A stretch of DNA of 62,005 nt, the filler included, from Deltaproteobacteria bacterium (GTDB lineage: Bacteria > JAUYMQ01): the NCBI GenBank assembly GCA_030698575.1. It is 10 parts of 10 records of this genome, joined end to end, with 100 filler letters (N's around TTAATTAATTAA, not from the genome) between each part and the next. Parts side by side here need not be neighbours in the genome. Positions count along the whole stretch, not along the records: positions 36,290 to 49,388 come from JAUYMQ010000108.1; 9 more parts are not named here. One strand, given 5' to 3'. The position numbers and the translations under genes were made by a program. The notes beneath the pieces were generated by a model. That model was not told the origin of the DNA. It saw only the letters and a program-made list of their open reading frames with translations, and searched no databases. Shown here piece after piece: positions 3,462 to 49,488 of the stretch. Positions within the stretch are counted from its first letter, which is position 1. Each line of letters starts with the position of its first letter.

Positions 3462-3577
3462 NNNNNNNNNNNNNNNNNNNNNNNNNNNNNNNNNNNNNNN
3501 NNNNNTTAATTAATTAANNNNNNNNNNNNNNNNNNNNNNNNNNNNNNNNNNNNNNNNNNNNCTGTCAAGCCGGCCCG

Positions 3578-3710: not shown

Positions 3711-3725
3711 AGGGCGGCGGAGGGA

Positions 3726-4121
3726 TCAGGCATCGACGACGGCGGCGGACGCCTGGATCTCGAGCTTGAGGGTCGGGAGGACGAGGGCGACGACCTGGAC
3801 CACCGTGCGGGCCGGGTAGTTCGCGGGGAAAAACTCCGCGAAAACCTTGTCGACGGCGGCCGTGTCGCGGATGTCGGTGAAGTATTGCGTGAGGTGAAGC
3901 ACGTTCTCGAGAGAAGAGCCCGCGGCTTCGAGCACGCGCTTCAGATTCGTGAAAGCGTTCCGCGCCTGCTCGGAAATATCATCCGGGATGGTCAGATCGG
4001 CGGCAATTCCGACCTGCCCGGCCACCTCCACCCGGCCTCCGGCGACGACCGCCTGGGAAAACTTGAAACGCTCGTAGATGGCCTCCGTGCCCGGGGGATT
4101 GATCCGCTCCAGCTTCGCCAT
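3726..4121 (-). CDS. RidA/YjgF/YER057c family protein
   Basis: FSQAVVAG, VAGQVG, EQARNAFTNL, YPARTVVQV, LEIQA motifs. Confidence 0.9.
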   Translation of the reverse strand: MAKLERINPPGTEAIYERFKFSQAVVAGGRVEVAGQVGIAADLTIPDDISEQARNAFTNLKRVLEAAGSSLENVLHLTQYFTDIRDTAAVDKVFAEFFPANYPARTVVQVVALVLPTLKLEIQASAAVVDA

Positions 4122-4166
4122 TATCTCCTCCTTTCCCGGACTCCCGTCCTGGGGACGTCCGTCTCA

Positions 4167-6079: not shown

Positions 6080-6085
6080 GGGCCC

Positions 6086-6115
6086 ATTAGATGGGGCGCT
6101 GCCCCGCGCTGTCAA
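6086..6115 (-). promoter_or_regulatory. Sigma70-like promoter, probably giving a leaderless mRNA
   Basis: TTGACA-N18-TCTAAT-N6-ATG with no SD sequence. Confidence 0.55.
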
Positions 6116-6132
6116 GCCGGCCGGGCCCGCAC

Positions 6133-6175
6133 GTCATTGCGAGGAGCGGCCCTCCTCGCCCCTCCTCGCTATGCC
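6133..6175. repeat. Short degenerate copy of the GTCATTGCGAGGAG palindromic element
   Basis: GTCATTGCGAGGAG...CTCCTCGCTATGCC hairpin. Confidence 0.55.
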
Positions 6176-6287
6176 ATGCGGCGTGAATAGGGCTTGACGG
6201 CGGTGGCTCGTTTTGGATTCATGCCAACCTGCCGCGCGTGCAGTGCTTGTACGATTTCACTCTTGAGATACTCTTTGGAGGCTTCCA

Positions 6288-6752
6288 ATGAAGCGCCTGT
6301 TTTCGCTGACCGTCCACCTCGTCCTCTTCTGCCTGCTCGTGGCCGCCCAGGCCGGCCCGTCGGCCGCCCAGGGGCGCGCGGACACCCAGGTGAAGATGGG
6401 TAAGAAGCTGTTCATGACCTACTGCAGCTCCTGCCACGGCGCCGATGCGCGCGGCGATGGCCCGGTCGCCGAGGCTCTCAAGGTTCGCCCCGCGGATCTG
6501 ACAACCATCGCGGCACGCCGCGACGGCGAATTTCCGGCGGCTGAGATTGCGATGTTCATCGACGGGAGAACGGTGATCGCATCGCACGGATCCCGCGAAA
6601 TGCCGGTGTGGGGCCAGCGATTCAGGGAAGAGCTGGGCAAGGACAGCGTGGCCGAGGAGATCACACGGGGGCGCATCGACGTGCTCATTGCCTACCTTCG
6701 GTCCATCCAGGCAATCGCCGAGAGCGCCGCGCCGCCGCCCGGAAAGCATTGA
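6288..6752 (+). CDS. Monoheme cytochrome c, secreted
   Basis: Signal peptide, CSSCH heme motif, PADLT, HGSREMPVWG. Confidence 0.9.
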   Translation: MKRLFSLTVHLVLFCLLVAAQAGPSAAQGRADTQVKMGKKLFMTYCSSCHGADARGDGPVAEALKVRPADLTTIAARRDGEFPAAEIAMFIDGRTVIASHGSREMPVWGQRFREELGKDSVAEEITRGRIDVLIAYLRSIQAIAESAAPPPGKH

Positions 6753-36289: not shown

Positions 36290-36581
36290 CGGCCTCCCGG
36301 ACGCAGATGTCCGCGTCCCGCGCCGGCCCGGGTTCGCTCGGCGCGGGACGTCTATCCCCCGCGCCGGTCTCGATCCGGCTGCCGCCCTTGAACACGCGCC
36401 CGATCAGCCTCACCTCGGCGGTGTCGATCACATCGAGCACGTCGGCGAGTTCACGGCGCGCGAGTTCGTCGTGCGCCCGGAGGAGACCAGCGATCAGGCG
36501 CAGGCGCGCGAGGCGGGCCGCCCGCGCCTGGTCCTTCACGGCGCCGGCGATGTCGAGCCTGCTGGCATCACGCATCAGCAT
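36290..36581 (-). CDS. Hypothetical protein, 3' truncated
   Basis: GAGGAGG RBS inside the upstream gene; open to the contig end. Confidence 0.55.
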
Positions 36582-37152
36582 CAGCGTCCTCCTCCTCCTC
36601 GCCGAGCAGGGACCACTCAGCGAGCGTCAGCGGTGACGGCACGTCCTCGTCGCCGTCCAGGCGGGCGCCGTCCTGGACGGCGCCGGCCAGGTCGGCGCCG
36701 GCCAGGACGGCCCTGCGCAGGTCGGCCCCAGTCAGGTCGGAGGCGCGCATGTCGGCCCGGCGCAGGATGGCCACGGTCAGGTCGGACCAGCGCAGGTCGG
36801 AGGCGCGCAGGTCGGCCCCGGTCAGGTTGGACCTGCGCAGGCGGGCACTGCACAGGATTGCCTCGCGCAGGACGACCTCGCGCAGGACGGCCTCGCGCAG
36901 GTCGGCGCCGCGCAGGCAGGCGCCGGTCAGGTCGGCGCCGGTCAGGTCGACGCCGCGCAGGTCGGCGCCGGACAGGATGGCGCCGAGCAGGCAGGCGCCG
37001 CGCAGGTCGGCGCCGCGCAGGACGGCCCCGCGCAGGACGGCCCCGCGCAGGACGAGGCTCGGGTCCCACGGCCTTACGGCCCGCCTGGCGGCCCGGTCCT
37101 CGCGTTGGAGGCGCGCGTGGGCCTCCGCGCGGAAGTGGATCGAGGGGGTCAC
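36568..37152 (-). CDS. Pentapeptide-repeat protein
   Basis: About 28 A(D/V/I)LxG/R/E pentapeptides. GTG start overlaps the upstream TGA. Confidence 0.9.
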   Translation of the reverse strand: MTPSIHFRAEAHARLQREDRAARRAVRPWDPSLVLRGAVLRGAVLRGADLRGACLLGAILSGADLRGVDLTGADLTGACLRGADLREAVLREVVLREAILCSARLRRSNLTGADLRASDLRWSDLTVAILRRADMRASDLTGADLRRAVLAGADLAGAVQDGARLDGDEDVPSPLTLAEWSLLGEEEEDADADA

Positions 37153-37352
37153 GGCGTCACCTCCTCGGGGAGGCCCTTGGCGTAGGCCATGTCGGCGTCG
37201 CGCAGGCGGGCGTCGCGCAGGTCGGCCCCGAGCAAGTCGAGGCCGGACAGATCGATGCTCAAGTCCCACGGCCTCACAGGCCGCTGGGCGGCCCGGTCCT
37301 CGCGCTGGAGAGCCACGTGGGCCTCCGCGCGCTCGCGATTCGAGGCGCTCAC
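37149..37352 (-). CDS. Short pentapeptide-repeat protein sharing its N-terminal module with the downstream gene
   Basis: RAEAHVALQREDRAAQRPVRPWD followed by DLSGLDLLGADLRDARLRDADM. Confidence 0.75.
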   Translation of the reverse strand: MSASNRERAEAHVALQREDRAAQRPVRPWDLSIDLSGLDLLGADLRDARLRDADMAYAKGLPEEVTP

Positions 37353-37488
37353 GGTGTCACCGCAGGCCCGGAGGCCTGGCAGGCTGGGCACCCGGGCTCG
37401 GGCCCCCAGCCATCGCCCGTGTACCAATTATGGCATCCGCAGCCAACGAGTTCCCCCGCGGCGGCGGAGGCGGCTGTGGCCGCGTCAT
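37349..37488 (-). pseudogene. Small cassette gene; probable frameshifted Cys-rich peptide
   Basis: ATG at 37488 after GAGGAG gives a 43-aa ORF ending at 37357. An adjacent frame encodes GCGCHNWYTGDGWGPEPGCPACQ and ends in a GTGA overlap with the next gene. Confidence 0.4.
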
Positions 37489-37504
37489 CGTCTCTCTCCT
37501 CGGC

Positions 37505-37586
37505 TTGCGGCGGGCCCCACGCCCGCCTCGGTTTCAGATACCCCCTCCCGGTCGCGAGCCGGGGCCGCCGTGAGCGGGCGGGGGCG
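37505..37586 (-). repeat. Structured intergenic repeat, copy R1 (82 bp)
   Basis: Near-identical to 38008-38088; its first 34 bp are identical to 38412-38445. Confidence 0.92.
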
Positions 37587-37592
37587 CTGGTG

Positions 37593-37992
37593 CTACTCCT
37601 CGTCGTCCTCGACTGCCTCGGCGGCGAGGGCCTCGGACGCGAGGCGCTCGGCCAGGTCCGACACCGGTCCCCACACCGGGTCGTCTCCGTAATCACGTTC
37701 GGCGAGCGACGCGCGCGCGCACAGCCCGGCCGCGCGATCCCAGTCGCCGCGCTCGGCGGCCTCGACTGCCTCCGCGCCGTAATTCGCGGCAGCGGCCGCA
37801 GAATACGCTACCGAGGCGCAGAGCGAGCAGCCTGGGCGGCCGCCGTCACAGTACTCCGGCTGGACGCCGTCACAGTACTCCGGCTGGACGCCGTCCAAAC
37901 GGTACTCGTGCGTCCAGTCGCCCCCCCCCCCAGGAGACCGCTGCCGCTTCGACGGCGCGGCGAAGGACGGCGGCGGCGGTGTCGGTGCTCAT
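37593..37992 (-). pseudogene. Acidic helical protein interrupted by a G11 tract (one extra base)
   Basis: 400 nt from ATG to TAG. Removing one G from 37921-37931 gives a 132-aa ORF. Confidence 0.7.
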
Positions 37993-38007
37993 CTTGCTCT
38001 CCGTTGG

Positions 38008-38088
38008 TTGCGGCGGGCCCCACGCCCGCCTAGCGTCAGATACCCCCTCCCGGTCGCGAGCCGGGGCCGCCGCGAGCGGGCGGGGGCG
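38008..38088 (-). repeat. Structured intergenic repeat, copy R2 (81 bp)
   Basis: Matches R1 except in a short linker and one loop base. Confidence 0.92.
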
Positions 38089-38094
38089 GCGTGG

Positions 38095-38400
38095 TCAGTC
38101 GAGGCGCTCACCGAAGGGCTCAACGCCCTCGGCCTCACAGTCCTCGCAGGCCGGGCACTGGCCCGACGGCCAGCCACCGGCCGGCGGCTCGCCGTCCGGG
38201 TGACAGCGGGTGCACAACGGCTCGCCCTCTGCCTCCAGACCCGCCTCCTCCTCCTGCCGCGGCCGGCCGCAGCAGGAGCACTTGGCCTCGGCCCTGGCCG
38301 CAACGTTGGAATCCCACTCGAGCCCCGCCCAATCCTGGGCGTGGGCCTCGACGTAGGCGGTGAGGGCGGTGAGGGCGGCTGTGTCTGTGGTGCTCATCAT
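38095..38400 (-). CDS. Small acidic Zn-finger protein
   Basis: GGAGAG RBS; CSCC, CTRC and CPACEDC motifs. Confidence 0.75.
   Translation of the reverse strand: MMSTTDTAALTALTAYVEAHAQDWAGLEWDSNVAARAEAKCSCCGRPRQEEEAGLEAEGEPLCTRCHPDGEPPAGGWPSGQCPACEDCEAEGVEPFGERLD
38190..38290. repeat. 101-bp inverted repeat, copy A
   Basis: Reverse complement of 40546-40646 with 1 mismatch (38230 vs 40606). Confidence 0.95.
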
Positions 38401-38411
38401 CTCTCCGGTGG

Positions 38412-38445
38412 TTGCGGCGGGCCCCACGCCCGCCTCGGTTTCAGA
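38412..38445 (-). repeat. Structured intergenic repeat, partial copy R3 (34 bp)
   Basis: Identical to 37505-37538. Confidence 0.9.
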
Positions 38446-38463
38446 AGCCTCGGGTCCTCGGCA

Positions 38464-38548
38464 ACACTGGACACACTGGAAACCTCCTCTCGACCCCTGT
38501 ATACTGGCACACTGAACCGGAGGAGTCAATAGTGGACCGAAAAAAAAA
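38464..38548 (-). promoter_or_regulatory. Promoter of the cassette array with UP-like T9 tract and four CAGTRT boxes
   Basis: T9...TTGACT-N17-CAGTAT. AYACTG(G/A) occurs at 38464, 38473, 38501 and 38509 on the + strand. Confidence 0.6.
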
Positions 38549-38810
38549 CCCGTGGCCCCGTCACTTGGGTGGCGGAGCGCTGGCAGGTGGGGCTCTCGAA
38601 GCGACATCTCGCGCCGAAGGCGCGGGTTATCCAGCTCCTCCTCGACCTGGCGGCTGACGAGCTCGGCCTGCCCGGGGAGCCGCTCGACCCTGGCAGGGGG
38701 CGGTGAGGGGTCAGTAGGGCAGGTCGGCGTCGGGCGGCCCGCGGTATCGAGGTCTAGGCGGCACAGGCCCTTGACATCTCGTACGTGTAGCGCAGTAATG
38801 GTCTGGGTGG

Positions 38811-39230
38811 TCATGCCACTCCTCCGGGCTCTGGGATGTCTACCCCAAATTCGGTCAGCGCCCACTGCCGAGCCCAGTCGATCAACGCCGTGAATTCAGC
38901 CGTCGTCAGCCGTGACGACGACGTACATCGCGGCACTCGCTGTCCGAGCGCCTCGCCACTCCATCCACGCCAGCACGCCAGTAGCGCGTAGTGGATGCGG
39001 TCGAGGCCATCGGCTCCGCTTTCGCCCACGTGCTGGGCCACGCGCGGCACGACCACGCCCCACCAATAGCGGTTCTGATCCGTCGAGCGGCGCGCGCGAG
39101 TTCGACGGATCACCAGCTCGACGCGGATCCCTTCGAGGCGCTCCAGGTAGGCCGCTAGTCTCTGGCGGTCGAGCCCGTCGAGACGACCATCGCGGACCAT
39201 GGCGTGCCACACGGGCACAGGAGAGCTCAT
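38811..39230 (-). CDS. NinB-like phage recombination-associated protein
   Basis: RSTDQNRYWWG...SSSRLTTAEFTALID...GVDIPEP. Confidence 0.65.
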   Translation of the reverse strand: MSSPVPVWHAMVRDGRLDGLDRQRLAAYLERLEGIRVELVIRRTRARRSTDQNRYWWGVVVPRVAQHVGESGADGLDRIHYALLACWRGWSGEALGQRVPRCTSSSRLTTAEFTALIDWARQWALTEFGVDIPEPGGVA

Positions 39231-39388
39231 CGGTGCTCGTGCTCGTGCTCGTCGAGCATGGCGCAGATGCGCGCCGCCTCCGCGCGAAGTGCACGCGGCC
39301 CGTAGTCTCGCTGGTGGCGAGCCCGACTCCGCGCCGTCGTGCCGCCGCGCAGTGGTACGCGGCGCACTGGCGGGCCAGATCTCCTCAC
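39227..39388 (-). CDS. 53-aa hypothetical protein
   Basis: Exactly fills the gap, with GTGA and ATGA overlaps on both sides. Confidence 0.5.
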   Translation of the reverse strand: MRRSGPPVRRVPLRGGTTARSRARHQRDYGPRALRAEAARICAMLDEHEHEHR

Positions 39389-40416
39389 GGTGCGATCTCA
39401 CCGCACGTCGAGCACGACCGCCCAGAGCGGTGCATCGACGCGCGCGGGCACCCGGGAGGCGAGGACGTCTCGGGCTCAGGATCCACCTCGGCCTCGGGCT
39501 CGGGCTCGGGCGGGCGCGGCGCGCCGACCAGGTGGATCAGGCGGGCCAGGTCTGCGCGGGTCGGATCGCGCGACGAGTCCCAGCCTGACTGCTCCGCTGC
39601 TCGCGCGGCCACCTCTTCTCCAGCCGTGCGAGTAGCCCAGGCCGTGGCAGCCGCACACAGATCGATCGGGACTACCGCGTCGTGGTCGCCCCGCGACTCG
39701 ACCAGCCAGTCCTCGAGCTCGTACGGGAGCTCGTACGGCTCTAACGCGCCACGCACCTCAGCCGCGCTCCGAGAAGCCCGCCGCGCCACAGGGCGCGGGT
39801 CTGGGCCAGACGGCACAGTGCGGTCTCCGACCTGCTCGTCGGCGCTATCCTCCCGAGGCAGATCATCTGGGTCGGCGTCTTCGGCCTCGCCGAACAGGCC
39901 GGCTGGAAGGTGCTGCACGTCGTCCAGGCGTGGTACGAGAGCGTATCCGTAGACGGCCGCCTTTTTTTCGGAAATCCGGATCCACCGCGCCCGATCCGCA
40001 CCACGCGGGGGCCGCTCGGCGAAGTCCAATGACCAAACATCCCTTATCGTCGAGATGGACGCTCCAATCCCGAGGTTACTCGCGACTCTCTTGAGGCTGT
40101 CGGAGTACCCGCCCTTGAGGGGCTCGGAGCTAGATGGCACACCTACATCCTCATGCGTGGTCTCGCGGTCACCGTCACGCACGGTCAGGCGGCAGACGAA
40201 TCCACCGCCAACCGACTCGTACGCTGCCGACCACCCGAGCGGCCCGAATGCAGCGTTCAGGCGGCGAATCACTGCGTGTCTGTTGATGCAAGGAATCAGC
40301 AGCACGCTCGGTTTGCTCCTGGCGCCCTTTCCGGCCACGATATGACCGGCTCGCCACGCCACCTCGTCGTCACGGATCGGCTCCGCAAGGGCCGTTAGGT
40401 TCGTTATGCCCATCAT
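39385..40416 (-). CDS. Rad52/Rad22-family (Sak/DdrA-like) ssDNA annealing protein
   Basis: LAEP...EVAWR...AVIRRLNAAFGPLGW...EDVG...EPLKGGYSDSLKRVASNLGIG. Confidence 0.85.
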   Translation of the reverse strand: MMGITNLTALAEPIRDDEVAWRAGHIVAGKGARSKPSVLLIPCINRHAVIRRLNAAFGPLGWSAAYESVGGGFVCRLTVRDGDRETTHEDVGVPSSSEPLKGGYSDSLKRVASNLGIGASISTIRDVWSLDFAERPPRGADRARWIRISEKKAAVYGYALVPRLDDVQHLPAGLFGEAEDADPDDLPREDSADEQVGDRTVPSGPDPRPVARRASRSAAEVRGALEPYELPYELEDWLVESRGDHDAVVPIDLCAAATAWATRTAGEEVAARAAEQSGWDSSRDPTRADLARLIHLVGAPRPPEPEPEAEVDPEPETSSPPGCPRASMHRSGRSCSTCGEIAP

Positions 40417-40715
40417 TCCCGGCCTTCCCACGCCAGGGCGAGTTCGCAGCTCGGCCCGATGCCTGCCATAGACGAGACGCAATCCATGCAATCGTCTAGC
40501 AGATGGACGAGAGCCCCTGGCCGCCCTCGTCCTCGCGGCCAGTGGCGAGGCCAAGTGCTCCTGCTGCGGCCGGCCGCGGCAGGAGGAGGAGGCGGGTCTG
40601 GAGGCCGAGGGCGAGCCGTTGTGCACCCGCTGTCACCCGGACGGCGCGACCCACAACACTCGACATCGATCGGAGCCGAGAACTTCTCGCACGCCTCGCA
40701 CCATAACTTTTCCAC
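40413..40715 (-). CDS. Cys-containing hypothetical protein carrying the inverted 101-bp segment
   Basis: GAGGGG RBS, GTG start, stop overlaps the annealase ATG. Confidence 0.6.
   Translation of the reverse strand: MEKLWCEACEKFSAPIDVECCGSRRPGDSGCTTARPRPPDPPPPPAAAGRSRSTWPRHWPRGRGRPGALVHLLDDCMDCVSSMAGIGPSCELALAWEGRE
40546..40646. repeat. 101-bp inverted repeat, copy B
   Basis: See copy A. Confidence 0.95.
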
Positions 40716-40778
40716 GTTTGCCCCTCTTGCTCGTGTTGGTATGATCCAATCTTAACAGCACAGGCATGGGAGATCAAC

Positions 40779-41132
40779 GTGACGGTATCAAAGAATCATG
40801 AAGACGGACCTAGGATCATCTTCATCGCGCTCGACGACGCTGGGTGGTCCGCGCTCCATAGGCACGCCGACCTAGGCGGCCCCCGGGAGCGCACGAAGGC
40901 CGCGTCGATTCGCTGCCTGATCCGGCGCGCCGGCGCCGCGCGGCTCGGGTTGAGGCCCCTCGGCGTGCAGCGCGCCAGGAGATCCGCATCCCACGCGTAC
41001 CATCTCCTGCTAGAGCCATCCGATGTCAAGGTGCTCGACCGCATACGAGGAGCACTCGCCGAGGGGGCCGGGAGGTCCAGGGTCTCGCGCACGGCGGCTA
41101 TCCGTCACCTCCTGCTGACGTGCAGTCCGTGA
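40779..41132 (+). CDS. Putative tandem ribbon-helix-helix regulator
   Basis: Two beta-helix-helix units (IIFIALDD...TKAASIRCLI; YHLLLEPSD...SRTAAIRHLL). First gene at the divergence point. Confidence 0.5.
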   Translation: MTVSKNHEDGPRIIFIALDDAGWSALHRHADLGGPRERTKAASIRCLIRRAGAARLGLRPLGVQRARRSASHAYHLLLEPSDVKVLDRIRGALAEGAGRSRVSRTAAIRHLLLTCSP

Positions 41133-41368
41133 CGGACGAGATTACGCCCGTCGAGGCGCTACGCCGAGAGATCGAGCGTGAGCGCGCAGAACTGGCGAGA
41201 GTTCTGCGCCAGCGGAGGGGAGCCGACAACGTCGCACGGATCAATCGCTCGAAGGATCGGATCGAGCGGCTTAAGCGGCTTAAGCGGCAACTCGTGGATG
41301 AAAATGCCAGCGATGGCGAGCGAGCGAGCTTTGCTGCCCGCTCCTCGACCTCCTGCCTGGAGAACTAG
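41129..41368 (+). CDS. Small coiled-coil protein (possibly frameshifted near 41300)
   Basis: GTGA overlap with the upstream gene; R/E-rich heptads. Confidence 0.55.
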   Translation: MTDEITPVEALRREIERERAELARVLRQRRGADNVARINRSKDRIERLKRLKRQLVDENASDGERASFAARSSTSCLEN

Positions 41369-41651
41369 CGTCTCGCATCGACGGCATCGACGGCGAGTTA
41401 GACCAGGGACGGAGGGTAGGCGTGTGCCCGCTCGGGGTCGAGTTGGCCGCGGAGGACACGGGCTAGGCGGGAGCGCCAGGCGTGCGTGGGGGGCTCCGTG
41501 GATGGCCCATCGGACCCATGCTAGACTAACCGACCCGCCGTACAGGGGAGCGCCCCGAGCAGTGTAACTCGGGGCGCTCTGGCTGGCGGACGGCCGGAGG
41601 ATGCCGAACCATGAGACAGTCTATCACACCCTCTGACGCCTACGCGACATC

Positions 41652-42902
41652 GTGACCGGCATAGTTCGGGTCGAGCGCCAGAACGACCTACGGGACAGCC
41701 TGCTAGCCCAGATCGATGCGTCGCAGCACTACACGACACTAGAATCCTGGCAGCTCGCGGACGTCCTCAGTAATCGAGTCGGCAAAACTGCCCTGGTAGT
41801 CTACCACGCCATCCAGGCCCACGGAAGAGCAGGCGTGGCGACCTGGCCGAGTAACACTAGGCTGGCTCGGGCGATCGGCGTGGACCCCAGGACGATCCAA
41901 ACGCACGTCGCCACGCTCGAGTCTGCGGCATGGATCGGTCGCGAGGTCGATCGGTCGTCGAGTGGAACGAAGCGCGTGCTGATTTGCTACCGGAGCCGTG
42001 GAGAAGGAAGCGTTAATGGGACGGATGTTGGCCATCCTGAGAGGGGTGATGCCAGTCTTCAAGGGGGCGATGTTGAGCATCCGGAGGGGGATGATGCTGA
42101 TCATCATGGGGGGGGCGATGCGGCCCATCACCCTGAAGTACCATCAGTAGAACCACCAGAAAAGCCCCCTCTAAAGTCTCCCCCGTCGGGCTTGATCTCC
42201 GACGTCTGCACCCCCCCCCACCCCCCCCAAGGGGGGGGCTTGTTAGAATCTTCTTCAGCGGCCACGGCTACGGCCACGACGGATCAACGTCCGCGCAAAC
42301 GCGACACGTTCTCCCCGGCTATCGATCCCTGGCTGGAGGAGCAGACGACCAAGCTGCTCGCAGCCTACCCGCCGCTCGGCTACGGCCGCGCGATCTCAAC
42401 AGCCCCTCCGCTCAAGGTGCGTCGAGCCCTTGGCGAGGTTGCTGTCGGCCTGAACGCTGACGCCCTCCAATGCCTGGCCGACCAACTCCTCGAAGGCGCG
42501 GCGGCCCAGCGATCGCTGTGGACGCAGCGAAACCGGGCGCACGCGGACGGCCGATCAGTTCCCCTCCTACCCGCTCTCCCAGCTTGGATCCGCAGCCGCT
42601 CATGGGATGCCGTGCCGGCCGAGCCAAGCCGCGCGAACGCCAAGCCGCCTGCGAGCTCCGTCACGCCACGAGCGGAGCAGAAGGCGGCAGGGTGGCACGT
42701 GGCTGAACGCGATCGGCTACGGGCCTGTCTCGCGGCCCTGCCGGAAGACGAGCGCAAAGCCCTGGAGGCTGAGGCGGAGAAGACTAACCCCCGCCTGTTC
42801 GCCTCGTGTAGGCTGGACGTGAGTCATCAGCGCGAGGAGCTCGTGCTCGATGCTCTCGACCGGAAGCAGAGGTCACAGCGGGCGCGAAGAGACAGGACAT
42901 GA
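41652..42902 (+). CDS. Phage-type replication initiator (N-terminal wHTH)
   Basis: TWPSNTRLARAIGVDPRTIQTHVATLESAAWI; central iterons; PPHPPQGG linker; LPAWIRSRSW. Confidence 0.75.
   Translation: MTGIVRVERQNDLRDSLLAQIDASQHYTTLESWQLADVLSNRVGKTALVVYHAIQAHGRAGVATWPSNTRLARAIGVDPRTIQTHVATLESAAWIGREVDRSSSGTKRVLICYRSRGEGSVNGTDVGHPERGDASLQGGDVEHPEGDDADHHGGGDAAHHPEVPSVEPPEKPPLKSPPSGLISDVCTPPHPPQGGGLLESSSAATATATTDQRPRKRDTFSPAIDPWLEEQTTKLLAAYPPLGYGRAISTAPPLKVRRALGEVAVGLNADALQCLADQLLEGAAAQRSLWTQRNRAHADGRSVPLLPALPAWIRSRSWDAVPAEPSRANAKPPASSVTPRAEQKAAGWHVAERDRLRACLAALPEDERKALEAEAEKTNPRLFASCRLDVSHQREELVLDALDRKQRSQRARRDRT
42024..42129. repeat. Five iteron-like GATG-N5-CATC palindromes (putative origin)
   Basis: Copies at 42024, 42048 (CTTC variant), 42069, 42093 and 42117, separated by G-runs. 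Confidence 0.75.
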
Positions 42903-42927
42903 GCCAGGCGAGCCAGGTCGAGGAGCC

Positions 42928-44493
42928 ATGCTGAGAGAACGCCCCTACTGGTACGCTCTCTACGCCGATGTCCCCGATGCGCTCGAACTACCTTCACAGT
43001 TCGACCCCGAAGTAAGGGAATCTCACGCCGACTGGCTCGCCGGCGGTGCGCGTGGTCGTCTGCTGGATGTCCCCAAGTATCAACCCACTCAGTGCTTTTG
43101 GAGCCGCCTGGGGGCTTGTGAGATCCTGCCCTCGGGGGCGCTCCCTGACCCGCGCATCATGTGGCGCCTAGGATCCTGGCAGCCCGAAGGCGCCGAGTTC
43201 TTGAACACCCGTGTTGCAGCGCTCCTTGGGGATGAGCAGGCCGCGGGTAAGGCGGTGATGTCTTCGCTGGCGATCCCGTACGGCGCGTCGGTGATATACG
43301 TTTGCCGTGCTACGGGCGTTCACGACCAGGCGAGAAAGATTCAGGCGTGGCGACCAGACATGCTCGTGAGCAAGTGGAGGCGCCAAGACTTCGTTCGCTG
43401 GCCCCAGCCAGCCGAGGTGGCCGTGATCTCGATGGACAGCCTGCCAAGGCCCAGAGGGTTGAGCGCGAGCGATCCAGTCGAGCGGAGACGAGCGGCTGTC
43501 GAGCGCATGCTCCCGAGGGGCCGGTGGGGAGGCGTCCTGATCCTAGACGAAGTGGACAAGCTGTCCACTCCCAGGACGCATCGAAGGCTCGCCGCCGAGG
43601 CCATCGCCAGGCGCGCTAGCCGTCGATGGGGCCTAACGGGCACGCCCATGAGCAACGTTCCCGAGAATCTCAAGGAGGTGCTCAAGCTCCTCGGCCTCTT
43701 TCGCTGCGCGTTCCACTCCGAGGCAGAGTTCGACGAACTCCTGGGTGTACAGCGCGGGCGAGAAGAGGGCGAGCACGGAGGCAGGTCGAGGGGTGGTAAC
43801 GTGTCTCCGGTTGTTCGGGAGCGCATGCAGCGCGTTTACCTGCGCCGGACGTGGAGGGACCTCGGCGGACTCGATGAGCCGCGCTTCATCCGCACAGCCG
43901 TTGATATCGACCACGCCTACATCGACGAGCTCATCGCTGCCGCCGGCGGACTAGCTGCGGTCTTAGAGCGCGTCAAGCATCCAGGATTCGGTGACATCTC
44001 AGAGATGGCCCGTCTTCGGCAGGGGCTCGCTCTCGCCAAACTGCCCGTTGCCGTAGACCGCGTGAGGGCTCATCTTGAAGAGGGGGCGCCCGTCATCGTC
44101 TACTGCTACCACGTCGAGCCTCTCCACCAGCTCCAAAGAGCGCTGGGCAGAGATGCATGTGGCCTGATCGTGGGGTCGGTGAGCGTCGCGAGGCGAGATA
44201 AGGTCATCGCTGGCTTCTGCGCGGGCCGAACTCCTGTCGTTGCCATTTCTGGGGCAGGCGAGGATACCATTGACCTCATTCGCAGAGATGACATCCCTTA
44301 TCAGGCCCTTGTCAGGATCGACATCTCATGGGCCCCGAGAAGCAACGGCCAGGTAGTGGGGAGGGCTCGAAGGCCCGGAATGCGCTGGCCGTTGATAGTC
44401 GAGGACCTGATCGCGGACCATGCCCTCGAGCATCACGTCCACGCCATCGTTGAGCAGAAGGAGTCCGTCATGCGAGCGGCTGGGATCCTGTGA
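42928..44493 (+). CDS. Divergent SNF2-like SF2 helicase
   Basis: LLGDEQAAGKA, LILDEVD, GLTGTPMSN, YLRRT, QVVGRARRPG. Confidence 0.8.
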   Translation: MLRERPYWYALYADVPDALELPSQFDPEVRESHADWLAGGARGRLLDVPKYQPTQCFWSRLGACEILPSGALPDPRIMWRLGSWQPEGAEFLNTRVAALLGDEQAAGKAVMSSLAIPYGASVIYVCRATGVHDQARKIQAWRPDMLVSKWRRQDFVRWPQPAEVAVISMDSLPRPRGLSASDPVERRRAAVERMLPRGRWGGVLILDEVDKLSTPRTHRRLAAEAIARRASRRWGLTGTPMSNVPENLKEVLKLLGLFRCAFHSEAEFDELLGVQRGREEGEHGGRSRGGNVSPVVRERMQRVYLRRTWRDLGGLDEPRFIRTAVDIDHAYIDELIAAAGGLAAVLERVKHPGFGDISEMARLRQGLALAKLPVAVDRVRAHLEEGAPVIVYCYHVEPLHQLQRALGRDACGLIVGSVSVARRDKVIAGFCAGRTPVVAISGAGEDTIDLIRRDDIPYQALVRIDISWAPRSNGQVVGRARRPGMRWPLIVEDLIADHALEHHVHAIVEQKESVMRAAGIL

Positions 44494-44891
44494 TGGACGC
44501 AGACAGACCCAGGCGCCTCTCTCCGACCATGAAGCGCGCCCTGCTAAACGAGCGAGATGGGCGGATCCCTCTCCTCGAGGCGGGGCTCAAGGCGAAGGGA
44601 TCTAAGGAGCGCCGGGGGGCCGAGCGCACCAAGATGGCCTTGATCGAGCGGGGCTTCTTGATGGCCGCCGCTTTCGCTCGTTGCGAACTGACCAGCGAGG
44701 GCATGGTTCTCATCGAGGAGATGCGCAGGGAGGAGCGCCGAAAGGCGATACGGAACCAGATCAAGGCGGATAAGTTGGCATCGGAGCCTAGATCGCGCTG
44801 GGGTCCACGGAAGAATAAGCAACTCGTTTCAAGATGGGGCGAGTGTAGAGCGAAGAAGGTAAGATGCCGCTCGTCAGGGCACCGAGGATGA
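44493..44891 (+). CDS. Basic hypothetical protein (possible wHTH)
   Basis: ALIERGF...ELTSEG; coupled to the helicase stop. Confidence 0.5.
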   Translation: MDADRPRRLSPTMKRALLNERDGRIPLLEAGLKAKGSKERRGAERTKMALIERGFLMAAAFARCELTSEGMVLIEEMRREERRKAIRNQIKADKLASEPRSRWGPRKNKQLVSRWGECRAKKVRCRSSGHRG

Positions 44892-44895
44892 AGCA

Positions 44896-45258
44896 ATGGC
44901 ACACGGCATGATTTCAACGCTCGTTAAAGTCCTAGATGACGTTACGGGCATCGAGAACACTACGTTCATTTCAATTCCGTCGGCTCATCTTCGAGCGTGT
45001 TCGCTTGGCTTCTACGGGCGCCTCGTTGTCGAGTTCTCATCGGTGACGACGGCTGGAGTGATCATTCAGGTCACCAAGGGCGCGTCGTCCCGGATCCTGT
45101 CGCGCACAGAGCCAACCGCAGCGATTTTCGGGAGGGTCAACATCCCCATTGACCCGGCGGCGACGAGCTACGAACTCATCTCTACGGCCGACGGCAATAT
45201 CGCGTCGGTGATTGTTACCGAGATCGCCGGAGACTCTGGGCAGTTTGGGCTAAGCTAG
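44896..45258 (+). CDS. Beta-rich hypothetical protein (possible virion protein)
   Basis: GAGGA RBS; alternating hydrophobic beta pattern; T/S/I/V-rich. Confidence 0.55.
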   Translation: MAHGMISTLVKVLDDVTGIENTTFISIPSAHLRACSLGFYGRLVVEFSSVTTAGVIIQVTKGASSRILSRTEPTAAIFGRVNIPIDPAATSYELISTADGNIASVIVTEIAGDSGQFGLS

Positions 45259-45274
45259 GATCCGGCCGACACGG

Positions 45275-45643
45275 CTAGCCCGACCCGCCAAAATGCTGTT
45301 CGCAGTAGTTCTCTCCCTCCAGCGTCTCTTGGCCGCATGTTCCGCCCGCTGCCGCGCACGTCTCGGACTCTCCTCCAGGGCCGAGAGAGTCTTCGATCCC
45401 CATCGCTAGCTTGATGGCCTGGCCCTCGTGATCCGTCAGGGCCTCTGACGCCACCGCGTAGAACATGGTCTTCGCGCGCTCCATCTCGACCAGTACGCAC
45501 GCCAGAATGGGTGCTCCTGCTCCCTTCTCGGCTGGCTGCTCAACGTAGTACGGGCACGCAGGTCCCTCGCAGGGGCCCTTGAGTCGCTTGATTGGAGCGC
45601 ACAGGAATCGCGGGCTTCGCCCTTGCATCTTCAGGGGTGACAT
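45275..45643 (-). CDS. Cys-rich hypothetical protein
   Basis: GGAGG RBS; CEGPACPY and C...C...YCEQH motifs. Confidence 0.6.
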   Translation of the reverse strand: MSPLKMQGRSPRFLCAPIKRLKGPCEGPACPYYVEQPAEKGAGAPILACVLVEMERAKTMFYAVASEALTDHEGQAIKLAMGIEDSLGPGGESETCAAAGGTCGQETLEGENYCEQHFGGSG

Positions 45644-47001
45644 CAGTTCTCGCCTCCAGCCTTCGAGAAGGCATTCTTGACTCCGAGGAGCCACGTAACT
45701 AGCTCTCCGTTCGATCGCATGGCATCGATGATCTCGCCCATCGGAAGGCCTGGCACGCGCTTGAACCACGCAAGGTACTCGTTGATTCCGTCTGCTCCCA
45801 GCAGCTTGATGCGACCCTGGTCGGTCAGGTACTGAGACGCGGAGGCTACAAATTCGGCGGGGTCATCCGCTGTCTAGCCTCCCATGATCGCGTTGAGGTT
45901 CTCGATCAGGGCCTCCCCGAACTCTCTGGATGCGTAGGGCGCCGGGCCGTTGATGCGCGCTGGCGTCGCGGATTGGGGGCTCTGTGGCGGGGGGTCCTGC
46001 GGCTTGGCATCTGCCGCAGTCTTCTTGTCTCCGCTCAGGATGCGATCCAGGACTTCAGGGATGAGCTCCTTTGCCCACGCGAGCGGGTTGTCATCGTCAT
46101 CGTCATCCCACGCGTACGGGTCCACGGCCTGGTTCGCGGGGCCAACCAGGCGCTCTTGGACCATCTGGGCCATTGCCTGCTCCATCGCCAACTCGGCCGG
46201 GGTCTTGGCGCGTTCTCTCGACGCTGAGCGCCGGTCCTCTCGGGCTTGGTCGAGGAGCATGGCCATAGCCGGGTCGAGAGGCTTGTTCCCGTGCGCCATC
46301 TGGGCCTCGAGCCGGGCGAGTTGGGCGTGGCTCTCACGCTGCATCTCGAGAGCCCGGTAACGGTCCTCGGCTCGCTGGGATTCCGCCTTGAGCGTTGCGT
46401 TGCGCTCGCGTAGGTCCGAGCACTCTGCGCGAAGGCCCTCGATGCGTCGGTCAGAATCTTCGCGCAGCGCCTCGATGCGCCGCTCGAGTTCGGACACGCG
46501 GCCGTGCGCCTGGCCGAGCTGCTGCGTGAGCACCTGCGTCGTGTCGAGAGTCGGAGCCATCGTGAACCCTCCGCCCGGAAGTTGCATCGGCGCGCGGATC
46601 CCGCCCAAAGGCGACGCCATTATCTGGGCCCACGGAGCGGCGTATCTTGGGTCTATCGGATCCCCGGGGCTCTGCGGAGGCTCGGTTGCGTCCTTTGGGT
46701 CTCGGAGTTCGATGACGTCGCCCTCGGCGTTCTTTGGCGCGCGATTTTCTGCGGGAGCGATTTTAAACCTTCGCGTCTCTCCGATCTTCTCGCCACCCTC
46801 GAAGCACTCGGCATCGTAGACTCCTGCCCCGAAGTCGGTTGTGATATCGGCTTGGATCCTCGCCGCCCCGCCGGCCTCGACGTCGTAGGTCCGGTAGTAG
46901 CCAGCCTGTGGCCTTCCTTGCTTGTCATAAGCGGGCTCGACCCGGGAGACTTCGACGGTCTGCCTGATCTGAGAGATAGGTTGAGCGGGGGGCAAGGTCA
47001 T
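45643..47001 (-). CDS. Coiled-coil protein with in-frame TAG at 45874-45876
   Basis: 375 aa to the TAG, then 76 more sense codons ending in a TGATG overlap with the next gene. Confidence 0.65.
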
Positions 47002-47456
47002 CCTCCTGATGCAGCCACGAGGGCCGCAGCGCGAGATAGAGCATCGAGGGCAACGCCTAGAGGGTTCCCTCTCGTGTCAAGGTCTTGGGTAAACATGGCC
47101 TGTCGAATCGCCTCCAGGGCAACGCCTAGAGCTGGTGCGTGATCCCGGTGGACCAGCAAGCCGCCCTCGCTCGGCAGGCGAAGCGAGAACATCTGGTAGG
47201 GGTCGATTCGGGACGTGACGCCGCATCCAGGCTGCTCGCAGTGGCCGAATGTCAGCTTGCGCGTGCGGACCTGAACGAAGTGGACCCCACACTCCCGAGA
47301 GAAGCTGCCGGGGCAGACGAAGAGGTAGTCCTCTACCGTGTCTCCCTTGCAGCGCTCGGCGCGACGCTCGGCCGTAGCCTGCGCCATCGCCTGAGCCCTC
47401 CGCAAGACGTGCGGAGGGATCGGTCGAATCATCTGCGGCGCCGTTTGCGGATCCAT
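46998..47456 (-). CDS. Zn-ribbon hypothetical protein
   Basis: CP...CG...CEQPGCG; ATGA overlap with the next gene. Confidence 0.6.
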   Translation of the reverse strand: MDPQTAPQMIRPIPPHVLRRAQAMAQATAERRAERCKGDTVEDYLFVCPGSFSRECGVHFVQVRTRKLTFGHCEQPGCGVTSRIDPYQMFSLRLPSEGGLLVHRDHAPALGVALEAIRQAMFTQDLDTRGNPLGVALDALSRAAALVAASGG

Positions 47457-47552
47457 GGTGGCATGTTACGATTCACGGAACGACCACGCAAGCTAACCGC
47501 GATCAGACGAGACGCGGGAGGGTTTGCAGCTTTCACGGAGGTTGTGACCCAG

Positions 47553-47924
47553 ATGGGCGAACAGGATGGGGATGGGGAAGCTCCGGTCGCGGGCATCTCG
47601 TTTCACGGGAAACAGGACCCCAAGAAGGAGCAGGGCGCCGCGAACAGGGCGGAAATCGCCAAGATGGTCCTCGCAGACCCTGAGTGCGCGGCGATTTGGG
47701 TCTACTACAGCTCCCCTCGCAGGCTCCAAGCCCAAATCGACCGCGATGGCTACCTCAACATCTCGGGGGCATGGGCAGATGTCGTCGGGCACTTCAACCG
47801 TCCGAAGTGCCCGGCGACATCCCCGGCGGGGGGATCCTGCCAGCGCCACGAGGGCCACAGAGGCGAACACCACACCGTCATGCTGGGAGGGGGGCGTCTC
47901 TCCAGCGACATCATCATTTGGTAG
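47553..47924 (+). CDS. Hypothetical protein with C-terminal C..C..GHxGxH motif
   Basis: GGAGG RBS; CPATSPAGGSCQRHEGHRGEH. Confidence 0.6.
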   Translation: MGEQDGDGEAPVAGISFHGKQDPKKEQGAANRAEIAKMVLADPECAAIWVYYSSPRRLQAQIDRDGYLNISGAWADVVGHFNRPKCPATSPAGGSCQRHEGHRGEHHTVMLGGGRLSSDIIIW

Positions 47925-48006
47925 AGCCTGCGAGATCCAGGCGCGCGAGAGATTGGGCCCGATCTCGTTTCAGTGGCCCCGTGACCCAGCGTAGGCCTCG
48001 CCCGGA

Positions 48007-48705
48007 TCAGCGACGCATGATCTTTGCGACGGTGCCGTGGTGCCAGCGGCCGCCTCGCTTGGTCGGGATGCCGGCGGCGTTGAGCCGCCGGGCAACCTCG
48101 GAGAACGTCTCCCCCTGCTCGTCTACGAACTCGCGGACGAGCGCCACGGTGAGCAGCTCGTCCTCGACCTCGACCAGGCTCCGGCGCCCCTGGGCGTCGC
48201 GCTCGGGCGCGTAGGCGTAGCCGAGGGGCGGGGGACCCGTGCTGTAGCCCTGGGCTCGCAAGTGAGCCAGGGCGTCTCGGATGCGGTCACGCAGAAGCGA
48301 TCGCTCCATCTCCGCCGCGCTGGCGAGGATCCCGAGCACCATGCGCCCGGCCGTCGTCCCGACGTCCACGCCGAGGTCGAGCAGGTGGAGGCCCAGGCCG
48401 CGCTGCTGCCACGCTTCGGTGACCGTCAGCGCCTCGGACGCCCGACGAAACAGCCGATCGAGGCGCGGCGCCACGACCACGTCGACGAGACGCTCCTCGA
48501 CCAGGCGGACGAGCTCCGCACCCTCTGGGCGCTTGGCCAGTGGGACCGAGGCAGAGACGCCTCGGTCCACGGCTGTCCGCACGACCTCGAGCCCTCGGCC
48601 CTGGCAGAAGGCGGCGAGGGCGGCCTCCTGGGCGGCGAGCGAGACGCCGCCGTCTGCTTGCTCACGGGTCGAGACGCGTGCGTAGATGACGGCCCTCTTG
48701 GTCAC
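48007..48705 (-). CDS. Serine recombinase (resolvase domain plus short recombinase domain)
   Basis: IYARVST, DRGVSA, RLDRLFR, AEMERS, PPLGY, ARRLNAAGIPTKRGGRW. Confidence 0.92.
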   Translation of the reverse strand: MTKRAVIYARVSTREQADGGVSLAAQEAALAAFCQGRGLEVVRTAVDRGVSASVPLAKRPEGAELVRLVEERLVDVVVAPRLDRLFRRASEALTVTEAWQQRGLGLHLLDLGVDVGTTAGRMVLGILASAAEMERSLLRDRIRDALAHLRAQGYSTGPPPLGYAYAPERDAQGRRSLVEVEDELLTVALVREFVDEQGETFSEVARRLNAAGIPTKRGGRWHHGTVAKIMRR

Positions 48706-49220
48706 GACAACTCCTCGAACGCGAACGTTCCCTGATTCCGCTCGTGGCGGAAAAGGACATTGCCGCTGGCGAGACGCTCTCGAATGATCTCCGTGTAGGC
48801 GGGCTCGACCTCGATGAGCGTTGCCTCGATCCCGAGTTCCTGCGCGGCTACCCCGGTGGATCCAGAGCCGGCGAATGGGTCGAGGACCCGCGACCCCGGA
48901 GCGAGGGGAGCGAGGAGAGCATGCATGAGTTCGATGGGTTTGCCAGCCAGGTGCAACTTCTGCTTCGGCCCGCAGGAGGACAGCCCCTTCGCTCCCCACA
49001 CGACGTAGGACCGCTGATCCCGATTGTCGCCAGAGAAGCTCGGGTCGACGGTCAAGCTTCCGGAATGGCGGTGCTTAACCTCGGGAGATCGGGAGCGATC
49101 AGCCCGGGAAAGGCCTCCCGAGGAGTAGGGAGGGTCGGTCACGACAGCGTCGAACATCCCCTCTGGGAGCTCCCGGAGCGCAGCGTAGCTTTCACCCTCG
49201 ATGATCGTGATTGCCGACAC
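48702..49220 (-). pseudogene. Beta-class amino DNA methyltransferase with apparent internal deletion
   Basis: DPPY and DPFAGSGSTG are present, but the protein is only 172 aa; junction DQRSY|VVWG. Confidence 0.7.
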
Positions 49221-49488
49221 AAAACCTCCGATACGTCTTGATCTCCGATACGTGGTAGTGTATCGTGTCGGGACCAGTCGGTCAACAGCATGGAAAATCA
49301 GGGCCGCAGCCGAGGGAGGCGAGATGGATCTGGACGAGCGATACTCCGCCGAGTGCATCCCGGCCACGCCGGCGAGCTGCGCGAGCAGNNNNNNNNNNNN
49401 NNNNNNNNNNNNNNNNNNNNNNNNNNNNNNNNTTAATTAATTAANNNNNNNNNNNNNNNNNNNNNNNNNNNNNNNNNNNNNNNNNNNN

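Follow-up and report, generated by a model that had tools for sequence, protein, structure and literature searches.

What is the repeat that separates the small early genes of this phage contig, and does it amount to an undescribed system? In the window, i.e., the whole 62-kb stretch of DNA that was analysed, N/TTAATTAATTAA linkers hold together ten pieces that are unrelated to one another, and the gene array in question is confined to the piece at 36290–49388. This 13.1-kb contig, from an uncultured groundwater source, belongs to a temperate phage, the style of which is lambdoid. Every copy of the repeat is carried by the minus strand, within an early operon of the contig that runs leftward. 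The first-pass annotation had described them as a portable expression and processing element serving the gain, loss and shuffling of small early genes. The finding is real but orphan, a single metagenomic contig supplying its three copies. To rank it as an undescribed system would be an overstatement, since repeat-punctuated early arrays have been published (PMC2839356, PMC4122927, PMC3203893).

The short palindrome of the repeat is a 19-nt perfect hairpin, GGCGGGC-GTGGG-GCCCGCC on the minus strand, found in exactly three invariant copies in the window (37509–37527, 38012–38030 and 38416–38434), with variable flanks. The chance expectation is 0.20, and three copies were reached in 0 of 100 shuffles. 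The first (upstream) part, of 46 nt, is present twice, at 37540–37585 and 38042–38087, for an expectation of 0.00. Two full repeats and one half repeat can be delineated in this way, all on the minus strand. R1 (37493–37588) fills the spacer between genes G2 and G1, and R2 (37996–38090) the one between G3 and G2; each includes a long hairpin, coinciding with the 46-nt part, then the short one, then a GGAGAG ribosome-binding site (37494–37499 and 37997–38002, respectively). R3 (38400–38445), in the leader of G3, corresponds to the second module alone, namely a linker, the short hairpin and GGAGAG at 38401–38406. The placement is regular: R1 and R2 start 6–7 nt 3′ of stop codons (TAG and TGA), the short hairpin ends 9 nt before GGAGAG in all three copies, and the start codon follows after 0–5 nt, again in all three. 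Such constant spacing relative to stop codons and ribosome-binding sites, on a single strand of an early operon, fits the expression or processing module that had been proposed, and it counts in favour of a role at the RNA level.

The differences between copies are more widely spread than first thought. R1 and R2 align over 96 columns with 94% column identity, and the nine core columns that differ are distributed between the first hairpin (one), the linker (four) and the tail running from the short hairpin to the ribosome-binding site (four); variation had been placed in a loop and a linker only. The copies also form a mosaic: R1 and R2 agree upstream of TCTGA, the linker of R1 agrees with that of R3 at four sites, and the tail of R2 agrees with that of R3 at three, a pattern which requires exchange between copies. 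The homology does not stop at the ribosome-binding site but reaches ~8 codons into G3 and G2, the products of which indeed begin alike (MSTTDTAA and MSTDTAAA), as had been noticed at first reading.

Folding was analysed with ViennaRNA, pair probabilities being computed in a 200-nt context. The three-way junction initially drawn for the full repeat is disfavoured (−24.9 kcal/mol) with respect to a single long imperfect hairpin of 17 predicted pairs (−27.6 kcal/mol for R1 and −33.0 for R2), and its ensemble probability is as low as 0.004 in R1 and 8e-7 in R2. In context, the helix that closes the long hairpin shows pair probabilities of 0.66–0.99. Those of the short hairpin reach 0.80 in R2 and 0.98 in R3, and just 0.14 in R1. 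Compared with the contig itself, both elements are exceptionally stable: the long hairpin ranks within the best 1.4% (R1) and 0.2% (R2) of 6527 native windows, and the short one is tied for the most stable among 13080 windows of 19 nt on the same contig strand. Several observations count against a role as RNA. The ~100-nt units are not unusually stable when compared with dinucleotide shuffles (z = 0.20, −0.69 and −1.03), which folded equally well in 113, 45 and 29 of 200 cases, respectively; the lone position within the long hairpin at which R1 and R2 differ costs R1 one of the predicted pairs; and a perfect palindrome would be an equally suitable DNA site for a dimeric protein. With two or three near-identical copies only, there is no covariation.

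The genes between the repeats are small and of mixed integrity. G3 (38095–38400, minus strand) encodes a 101-amino-acid Cys-rich protein (CxCC...CxxC...CxxCxxC); no relatives were found, G3 itself being the only match among nine candidates, and leads towards a zinc ribbon or a TraR/DksA-like protein (Atlas) fell below the bar. In the assembled sequence, a stretch of 11 consecutive G (37921–37931) shifts the frame of G2 (37593–37992, minus strand), previously called an acidic gene, and leaves its ATG out of frame; the stretch is longer by one G in a Logan contig. G2 also carries a 24-nt tandem duplication at 37838–37885. G1 (37349–37488, minus strand) is ambiguous in frame. The ATG at 37488 opens a 43-amino-acid Pro-rich product ending at 37357, whereas the −1 frame encodes GCGCH...CPAC and ends by overlapping the following gene through GTGA, but lacks a start codon; no candidates were found for this −1 frame, and the sequence of G1 is identical in contigs from two runs. 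Because two of these three cassette genes look broken or ambiguous as assembled, the array may be decaying rather than tuned. Downstream of the array lie two translationally coupled paralogous genes for pentapeptide-repeat proteins (minus strand; P1, 37149–37352, and P2, 36568–37152; PF00805, E 7.9e-5 and 8.9e-37), which share a 184-nt repeat at 76% identity. Local duplications are abundant in this region, the 24-nt tandem and the P1/P2 paralogues being joined by a 112-nt segment from the middle of G3 (38190–38301) that recurs in inverted orientation (97%) on the plus strand at 40535–40646, in the interval separating the annealase gene from the rightward operon.

A promoter had been proposed ahead of R3, and no minus-strand site passed a consensus promoter scan of 36291–41700, either there or in R1, R2 or R3; the two promoter-like sites retained are both on the plus strand, one of them at 38477–38505. 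By eye, the A+T-richer spacer at 38498–38548 displays on the minus strand nine T (38540–38548) and TTGACT (38524–38529), followed after 17 nt by TGc-CAGTAT (38501–38506). This spacer may possibly serve as a weak promoter for the cassette array. Reading the R1/R2 unit by eye revealed no properly spaced −35/−10 pair. Since the repeat holds no minus-strand promoter-like site, it is not a promoter cassette.

Taken together, these features are best accommodated, with a probability of roughly 40%, by a composite intercistronic RNA hairpin and leader module that has spread locally by recombination. It would act in the polycistronic RNA. Its first part would be the ~46-nt long imperfect hairpin directly 3′ of the G3 and G2 stops, which could decide what becomes of the preceding cistron, either by forming a 3′ barrier or by offering a site for double-strand-specific processing. 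The second part, made of the linker, the perfect 7-bp hairpin and the constant 9 nt that precede GGAGAG and the start codon of the following gene, might behave as a cap-like 5′ stabiliser and insulator giving each small gene an identical translation-initiation context. Duplication and homologous exchange inside the array would account for both the origin and the likeness of the copies, and ~50–95 nt of homology would be supplied at each gene boundary as a side effect, on which the annealase might then act.

Such a module appears to be a local case of something that phages are already known to do, akin to the PeSLs of T4-type phages and to the start-associated sequences with extended inverted repeats (SAS/ESAS) of cluster K mycobacteriophages. 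PeSLs are promoter-early stem-loop cassettes, and recombination between PeSLs is shown by inverse PCR, with mini-circles (PMC2839356, PMC4122927). PeSLs are near-identical composite motifs that occupy one intergenic space after another in an early region rich in ORFans; every motif contains a G/C stem-loop and, on its 3′ side, a Shine-Dalgarno sequence plus a start codon. The present repeat has the same features, its hairpins being predicted. In contrast, PeSLs carry a sigma-70-like early promoter 3′ of the stem-loop, which is absent from R1 and R2, and reside in T4-like phages, whereas the host phage here is temperate and lambdoid-style; the order is also distinct here, with a long hairpin, a short hairpin and then the ribosome-binding site.

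According to PMC3203893, the SAS is a 13-mer, GGGATAGGAGCCC, lying 3–7 bp before start codons, which is thought to concern translation initiation, and the inverted-repeat arms of the ESAS are 17 bp long and imperfect. In the same account, this ribosome-binding motif precedes the starts of non-structural genes, with an inverted repeat upstream in about half of the SAS cases, in a single orientation and in association with unrelated gene families. The counterpart here is the 7-bp inverted repeat with its 5-nt spacer, 9 nt before GGAGAG in all three copies, in an early operon. The two sequences are unrelated, the pre-start sequence here being CGGAGAG plus a variable tail. Other differences emerge from that paper: at least 11–19 sites per genome instead of three, conservation across subclusters, and the lack of a long hairpin after the stop.

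A parallel in layout comes from an unrelated phage (L139; IMG/VR, complete, 63.6 kb), which has its own clustered hairpin-plus-RBS repeat. Its four copies are all on one strand within 1.5 kb, with none in controls. The likeness lies in the repetition, in four to five copies, of a ~60–70-nt unit that stretches from stops to start codons of small genes, and in the location of the array at the early end of the genome, adjoining a gene of the G2 family. The repeat sequence is unrelated to that of R1–R3; it is a single module with possible loop-to-3′ pairing, and its 3′ arm abuts the ribosome-binding site directly. Compensatory changes were absent there too, 0 of 16 pairs being changed on both sides, which counts against the reading as an RNA module. 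One may speculate from these two instances that G+C-rich temperate phages carry a promoter-less counterpart of PeSLs, in the form of lineage-specific modules, each made of a stop-proximal hairpin and of another ahead of the ribosome-binding site, bracketing single small early genes (including those of the ‘DWTHE’ family), which would standardise expression from one polycistronic RNA and let the adjacent Erf/NinB genes add, delete and swap cassettes; such a generalisation is rather unlikely.

Precedents for intercistronic hairpins also exist outside these arrays. In the early region of T7, irregular RNase III processing hairpins of ~17–20 bp lie between cistrons of one transcript, and the predicted 17-pair long hairpin resembles them. 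In E. coli operons, intercistronic REP/BIME stabilisers set the stability of the mRNA segment by segment; a BIME couples two palindromic units, a composition reminiscent of the two-hairpin composite seen here. REPs, however, form host-wide families of hundreds of copies, in contrast to the three copies present here and the lack of further copies in the other pieces of the window and of exact 23-mer matches in one genome each of 185,579 species.

The search for relatives was negative at several levels. An exact 23-mer from the short hairpin gave no match in GTDB genomes (185,579 species, one genome each), IMG/VR viral contigs or JGI metagenome contigs, and one from the long hairpin none in IMG/VR viral contigs and GTDB genomes. 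A degenerate hairpin pattern retrieved 10 viral and at least 120 genome stretches, with unrelated flanks among the matches listed; none of the 91 loci listed from the genome scan held more than one non-palindromic match. A multi-copy family of Verrucomicrobiota MAG contigs was rejected as a relative, forced letters alone being in common. A covariance model recovered R1, R2 and R3 from the window (109.4, 104.6 and 49.2 bits) and no further copy in the other nine pieces; the next match, at 24 bits (4806–4953), is weak and unrelated. On 35 of 131 further loci, chosen for the hairpin word or viral origin, nothing exceeded 25.7 bits. The model, which had been suggested as a check, revealed no other gene sets and no compensatory changes. 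Since the repeat is found nowhere else, with one gene content, neither covariation nor portability finds evidence in these searches, and the claim of portability is not supported.

Related phages were not encountered either in the three collections searched (genomes, viral contigs and metagenome contigs). For G2-family loci in GTDB genomes, the count was 0 of 39 stretches. Of the stretches screened for annealase relatives, none of the 600 from genomes and none of the 590 from metagenomes held one; among 473 from viral contigs there was a single case, at 32% identity and without the repeats. A tblastn search against phages returned 138 records, each below 60% identity; for the 57 records of a ‘distant’ blastn search against phages, coverage among the 15 listed was restricted to the pentapeptide repeats, and blastn against plasmids gave zero matches.

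Several known elements could be set aside on the same data. In agreement with the initial annotation, the repeat matches neither CRISPR nor attC. A CRISPR array or solitary repeat unit was rejected, an Rfam scan of 37300–38900 at E ≤ 1 giving two weak matches elsewhere and no CRISPR-DR family. An integron attC was rejected because the unit lacks GTTRRRY on either strand and has no adjacent IntI tyrosine integrase; a Pfam scan of the 20 contig ORFs identified a single recombinase, of the serine type (PF00239, 48007–48999). The Rfam scan at gathering thresholds, another suggested check, gave five tRNAs only, with no family over the repeats. A nut/put-type antitermination site was discarded in view of the three tandem intergenic copies and of this lack of an Rfam match, and an assembly artefact in view of the fact that parts of the repeat came up again when two runs were assembled independently. 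No RNA run containing the stretch was listed.

Among the rival explanations, the one that survives best, although unlikely, is that the repeat is first of all a recombination scaffold of the PeSL kind, its portable boundary homology being used by Erf/NinB or host RecA to excise, insert and swap single small genes, with any role as RNA being secondary. The machinery is at hand: a recombination module (38811–40416, minus strand) lies ~1 kb upstream of the array and comprises, as predicted at first reading, an Erf/Rad52-like annealase (39385–40416; PF04098, E 2e-6), together with a NinB/Orf mediator (38811–39200), with PHROG matches to phrog_1097 (E 4.8e-21) and phrog_72 (E 4.9e-13). The mosaic copies, the ectopic inverted copy of G3, which shows that the region recombines, the analogous L139 array and the mini-circles in the PeSL precedent (PMC2839356) all point the same way. 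In addition, a variant contig from run X2 is identical over 38267–38442 and then diverges just upstream of R3, at its 5′ edge. On the other hand, the copies are only three and the repeat has never been seen flanking other genes. No R3–R2 or R2–R1 joints or circles were found in the contigs of three runs, parts of the stretch lacking cover in X2 and X3; this weighs little, since contigs drop rare forms.

That the repeat is a neutral leftover or a selfish element, of no function for the phage, is improbable. Such a view would see in it either scars of recent tandem duplications that included the leader and N-terminus, in line with the homology running into the first codons, the two genes that look broken or ambiguous and the many local duplications, or a REP/MITE-like host element. 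However, the gene bodies are unlike (paralogy of G1, G2 and G3 is not demonstrated, with BLASTP E values of 0.08–3.8 and an hhalign E of ~0.06) and the spacers are 94–98% alike, a combination that recent copying of entire units, in its simple form, does not explain. A mobile host element is in turn at odds with the absence of copies from the other nine pieces and, for exact words, from the 185,579 species genomes, and no terminal inverted repeats or target duplications were seen around the repeat.

Slightly less probable still is transcriptional punctuation, in which the long G+C-rich hairpin would be a terminator or attenuator devoid of U-tract, insulating genes in a moron-like manner and read through under antitermination only. 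Its position directly after stop codons, its great stability relative to the contig and the G+C content of the cassette region (0.75, against ~0.65 in the remaining contig), as expected of acquired genes, are consistent with this. Neither hairpin is followed by a T run, though, and a terminator scan of 36291–41700 yielded 0 sites; since no minus-strand promoter-like site follows the hairpins, the gene downstream of a terminated transcript would be silent. The least probable reading is a DNA operator, the 7+5+7 palindrome binding a dimeric phage regulator that would tune or block RNA polymerase at gene boundaries: the palindrome is perfect and invariant amid variable flanks, small candidate regulators, namely the 40779–41132 product and G3, are encoded on the contig, and the stoperators of cluster A mycobacteriophages, which such a site would resemble in its action, are mentioned in PMC3203893, but no further copy of the 19-nt hairpin with up to three mismatches lies in the divergent control region (40417–40778) or elsewhere in the window, and the fixed 9-nt distance to the ribosome-binding site suggests that RNA is read rather than DNA.

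Should the RNA hairpin and leader module act in the way proposed here, it would be a compact natural part, offering unrelated small genes both a uniform expression context and a uniform recombination handle. It would then help to account for the turnover, in temperate phages, of early accessory genes, many of which serve anti-defence. Two by-products of the analysis may be more useful than the repeat itself. The first is a second phage with an independent repeat-punctuated array, which makes comparison possible. The second is the protein family of G2, a widespread and unannotated family of small phage proteins. Pfam and PHROGs assigned no family to 10 relatives, with one sub-threshold Pfam row. 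When the predicted fold of G2 was compared with the PDB by Foldseek, none of the 329 rows reached E ≤ 0.001, and the best sequence-profile match in the PDB (0.0032) was to designed helical repeats. This ‘DWTHE’ or His-Cys3 family is recognisable by the pattern W.GADWTHE ... YC.G ... C..C ... E.GD.P.WGP, and the AF2 model of G2 is confident, with a pLDDT of 91.1.

Three copies of a repeat punctuate the minus-strand run of small genes: R1 (37493-37588), R2 (37996-38090) and R3 (38400-38445). The repeat is real and well outside chance expectation, as its 19-nt perfect hairpin, GGCGGGC-GTGGG-GCCCGCC, occurs three times with no mismatch (0.20 expected; 0 of 100 shuffles reach three), and its 46-nt first part twice against an expectation of 0.00. 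R1 and R2 are 94% identical over 96 aligned columns, and of their nine core differences one falls in the first part; the linker and the stretch from hairpin to ribosome site have four each. R3 consists of the second module only. R1 and R2 begin 6-7 nt past stop codons, and 9 nt separate the end of the short hairpin from GGAGAG in all three copies. The likeness between copies runs on past the repeat, into the first ~8 codons of the cassette genes G3 (38095-38400) and G2 (37593-37992). An independent assembly of two sequencing runs contains parts of the repeats with no differences; its contigs break at the repeats, as expected for short words. The repeat is a genuine module of hairpin and leader, intercistronic and locally amplified.

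The first-pass annotation had drawn the first part as a three-way junction, a fold disfavoured by the energy model. One long imperfect hairpin is obtained instead (-27.6 kcal/mol in R1, -33.0 in R2), against -24.9 kcal/mol for the junction, with ensemble probabilities of 0.004 and 8e-7. The lone R1/R2 difference in this part lies at a loop position in the junction and breaks a pair in the long hairpin; a single site decides nothing between the two. The apparent stability of the units varies with the background chosen. Compared with dinucleotide shuffles of their own ~100 nt they are not unusual (z = 0.20, -0.69 and -1.03), whereas among windows of the same strand and contig the long hairpin ranks within the best 1.4% and 0.2% of 6527, and the short hairpin ties as the most stable of 13080. 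Terminators and an operator are two of the main rival explanations for such hairpins. An Rfam scan gave no family match to the repeats, CRISPR repeat families included, and the tested features of integron attC sites and of CRISPR repeats were both absent, in agreement with the initial annotation.

In the most likely reading, to which a probability of roughly 0.4 can be given, the module would act at the RNA level and exchange between copies would keep them alike. RNase III sites of T7 and REP stabilisers offer functional parallels to such an element. The copies are mosaic: R1 agrees with R2 upstream of TCTGA and with R3 at four sites of the linker, but with R3 at none in the tail, where R3 instead agrees with R2 at three sites. 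One contig of sequencing run X2 matches the window exactly over 38267-38442 and departs from it immediately upstream of R3. Moreover, 112 nt from the middle of G3 (38190-38301) recur inverted at 40535-40646, with 97% identity, between the annealase gene and the rightward operon. Taken together, these observations favour recombination at the spacers. No repeat-to-repeat joint, of the sort looked for under the cassette shuffling proposed earlier, was found in the contigs searched, where rare forms would not show. The mosaicism and the X2 divergence also bear on another main rival, in which recombination comes first. If the leftward transcript starts upstream of 40535-40646, its RNA would carry 112 nt antisense to the G3 mRNA; through the inverted repeat, the 2.2-kb recombination module might also be able to invert.

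No genome in a set with one for each of 185,579 species, and no IMG/VR contig, contained an exact 23-mer from either hairpin; JGI metagenome contigs likewise lacked the short-hairpin 23-mer. A loop-free hairpin pattern retrieved only unrelated hairpins among the matches listed. In the window the covariance model recovered the three copies alone, and it found no match in the 35 loci searched out of 131 collected. With blastn, only the pentapeptide repeats matched phages, among the matches listed, and nothing matched plasmids; annealase relatives among candidate stretches amounted to 0 of 600, one distant of 473 and 0 of 590. Since no further copies were found, the repeat offers neither countable covariation nor another gene context, so that the strong claim of a portable system, which was to be judged on these points, fails for now. 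A neutral or selfish origin is the remaining main rival. A REP-like dispersed repeat, of the form ...GAGC GGCGGGC GGGTC GCCCGCC GCAACGGGCCGGTGGCCCGTTCCACCC, recurs across many contigs belonging to a few MAGs, most of which carry the label Verrucomicrobiota or Pedosphaera, and some of which come from groundwater (loci L016, L024, L031, L043, L047, L053, L058, L064, L076, L085, L092, L098, L109 and L119-L121). It has the searched letters alone in common with the phage hairpin.

The element joins an already known kind of phage repeat, on an orphan contig. According to PMC2839356 and PMC4122927, the PeSLs of T4-type phages are units of stem-loop, promoter, SD and start lying between early ORFans, and recombine into mini-circles. 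In contrast, the R1-R3 element is without a promoter, and its phage is of a different kind. The SAS/ESAS of cluster K mycobacteriophages, as presented in PMC3203893, are RBS-bearing motifs just before start codons, often with an inverted repeat upstream, in one orientation and at non-structural genes, their function being described there as unknown. Their layout is that of the second module here, but their sequence differs, and the post-stop hairpin has no SAS/ESAS match.

Four viral loci came from a search with the G2 family; one of them, L139, lies in a complete 63.6-kb IMG/VR record with terminal repeats. In its array (3100-6610), the G2-family gene stands among successive small genes whose spacers hold 4-5 copies of a ~60-70-nt repeat, unrelated in sequence to R1-R3. 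This repeat has a conserved RBS and a 10-bp hairpin, whose loop, GGCGGC, may pair towards the 3' side with the GCCGCC that immediately precedes the RBS, forming either a pseudoknot or an alternative fold. Its core word occurs four times, on one strand and within 1.5 kb (controls 0), and its changes comprise three one-sided, wobble-compatible ones and no compensatory one. Two other loci with a G2-family gene have no such repeat. The repeat-punctuated architecture thus recurs and is not obligatory. A clear promoter (TTGACG, 17 nt, TATATT) can be read upstream of the L139 array.

G2 is a true member of a widespread unnamed small-protein family (137 cluster representatives at E<=0.001, ten at E<=1e-10), with the motifs W.GADWTHE, YC.G, C..C and E.GD.P.WGP (window 37593-37925; proteins P0003-P0138) and His6, Cys26, Cys33 and Cys36 invariant in 25 aligned sequences. 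No Pfam or PHROG family covers it. Its AlphaFold (AF2) model (pLDDT 91.1), a small knuckle plus three helices, has no significant match in the PDB. The family is present in viral contigs, and in 0 of 39 candidate stretches of species genomes with the patterns used. Since ~20 residues precede DWTHE in the relatives, G2 must start at ATG 37992 and be read through a G run (37921-37931, minus strand). The 11 G of the window put the conserved body out of frame with this ATG; an independent contig of run X1 has 12, and a full family-like protein needs 10 or 13. Either a homopolymer sequencing error or slippage switching G2 would account for this. A 24-nt tandem duplication in G2 (37838-37885, one imperfection) repeats the eight residues GVQPEYCD, taking in the conserved YC.G cysteine. 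G3 is an orphan that matched itself alone among nine candidates; weak Atlas leads point to small zinc-ribbon proteins. The coding frame of G1 (37349-37488, identical in contigs of two runs) is ambiguous: its only ATG opens a +1-shifted Pro-rich frame, and the Cys-bearing -1 frame (GCGCH...CPAC) has no ATG, GTG or TTG and overlaps the pentapeptide gene through a terminal GTGA. Pairwise and profile comparisons did not support paralogy of G1, G2 and G3.

Nine N44-TTAATTAATTAA-N44 linkers (3462-57047) chain the ten pieces of the window, so RecG and the tRNA cluster left of 36190 are not neighbours of the phage contig. The array sits on the 13.1-kb piece 36290-49388, apparently a portion of a temperate phage. 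Its minus strand encodes an Erf/Rad52-type annealase (PF04098, E 2e-6; phrog_1097, E 4.8e-21) and a NinB/Orf mediator (phrog_72, E 4.9e-13), upstream of G3, G2, G1 and two pentapeptide-repeat genes. The plus strand has genes for an O-like replication initiator and an SNF2-type helicase, and a serine integrase lies close to the right end. Two runs from one study of groundwater metagenomes contain the phage DNA, with 0.94 and 0.30 of the sampled words present. Similar pentapeptide genes occur in early regions of P22-like and Ralstonia phages (blastn). P1 (37149-37352) and P2 (36568-37152) share a 184-nt stretch of 76% identity. It covers ~60 residues at the N terminus of P2 and the greater part of P1 (67 residues), which looks like a truncated copy of the longer P2. 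A C8-TT-G8 palindrome within the O-like replication gene (42219-42240), possibly an origin or pause element, ties with the repeat hairpin as the contig's most stable 19-nt hairpin. Two alternative candidate genes occupy 38549-38814. A minus-strand frame is open from ATG 38814 through a T run, the spacer and R3 into G3 (256-aa ORF 38095-38865). Antisense to it lies a plus-strand 45-aa ORF (38569-38706), with similar GC3 over this stretch and a promoter-like site upstream (38477-38505, plus strand).
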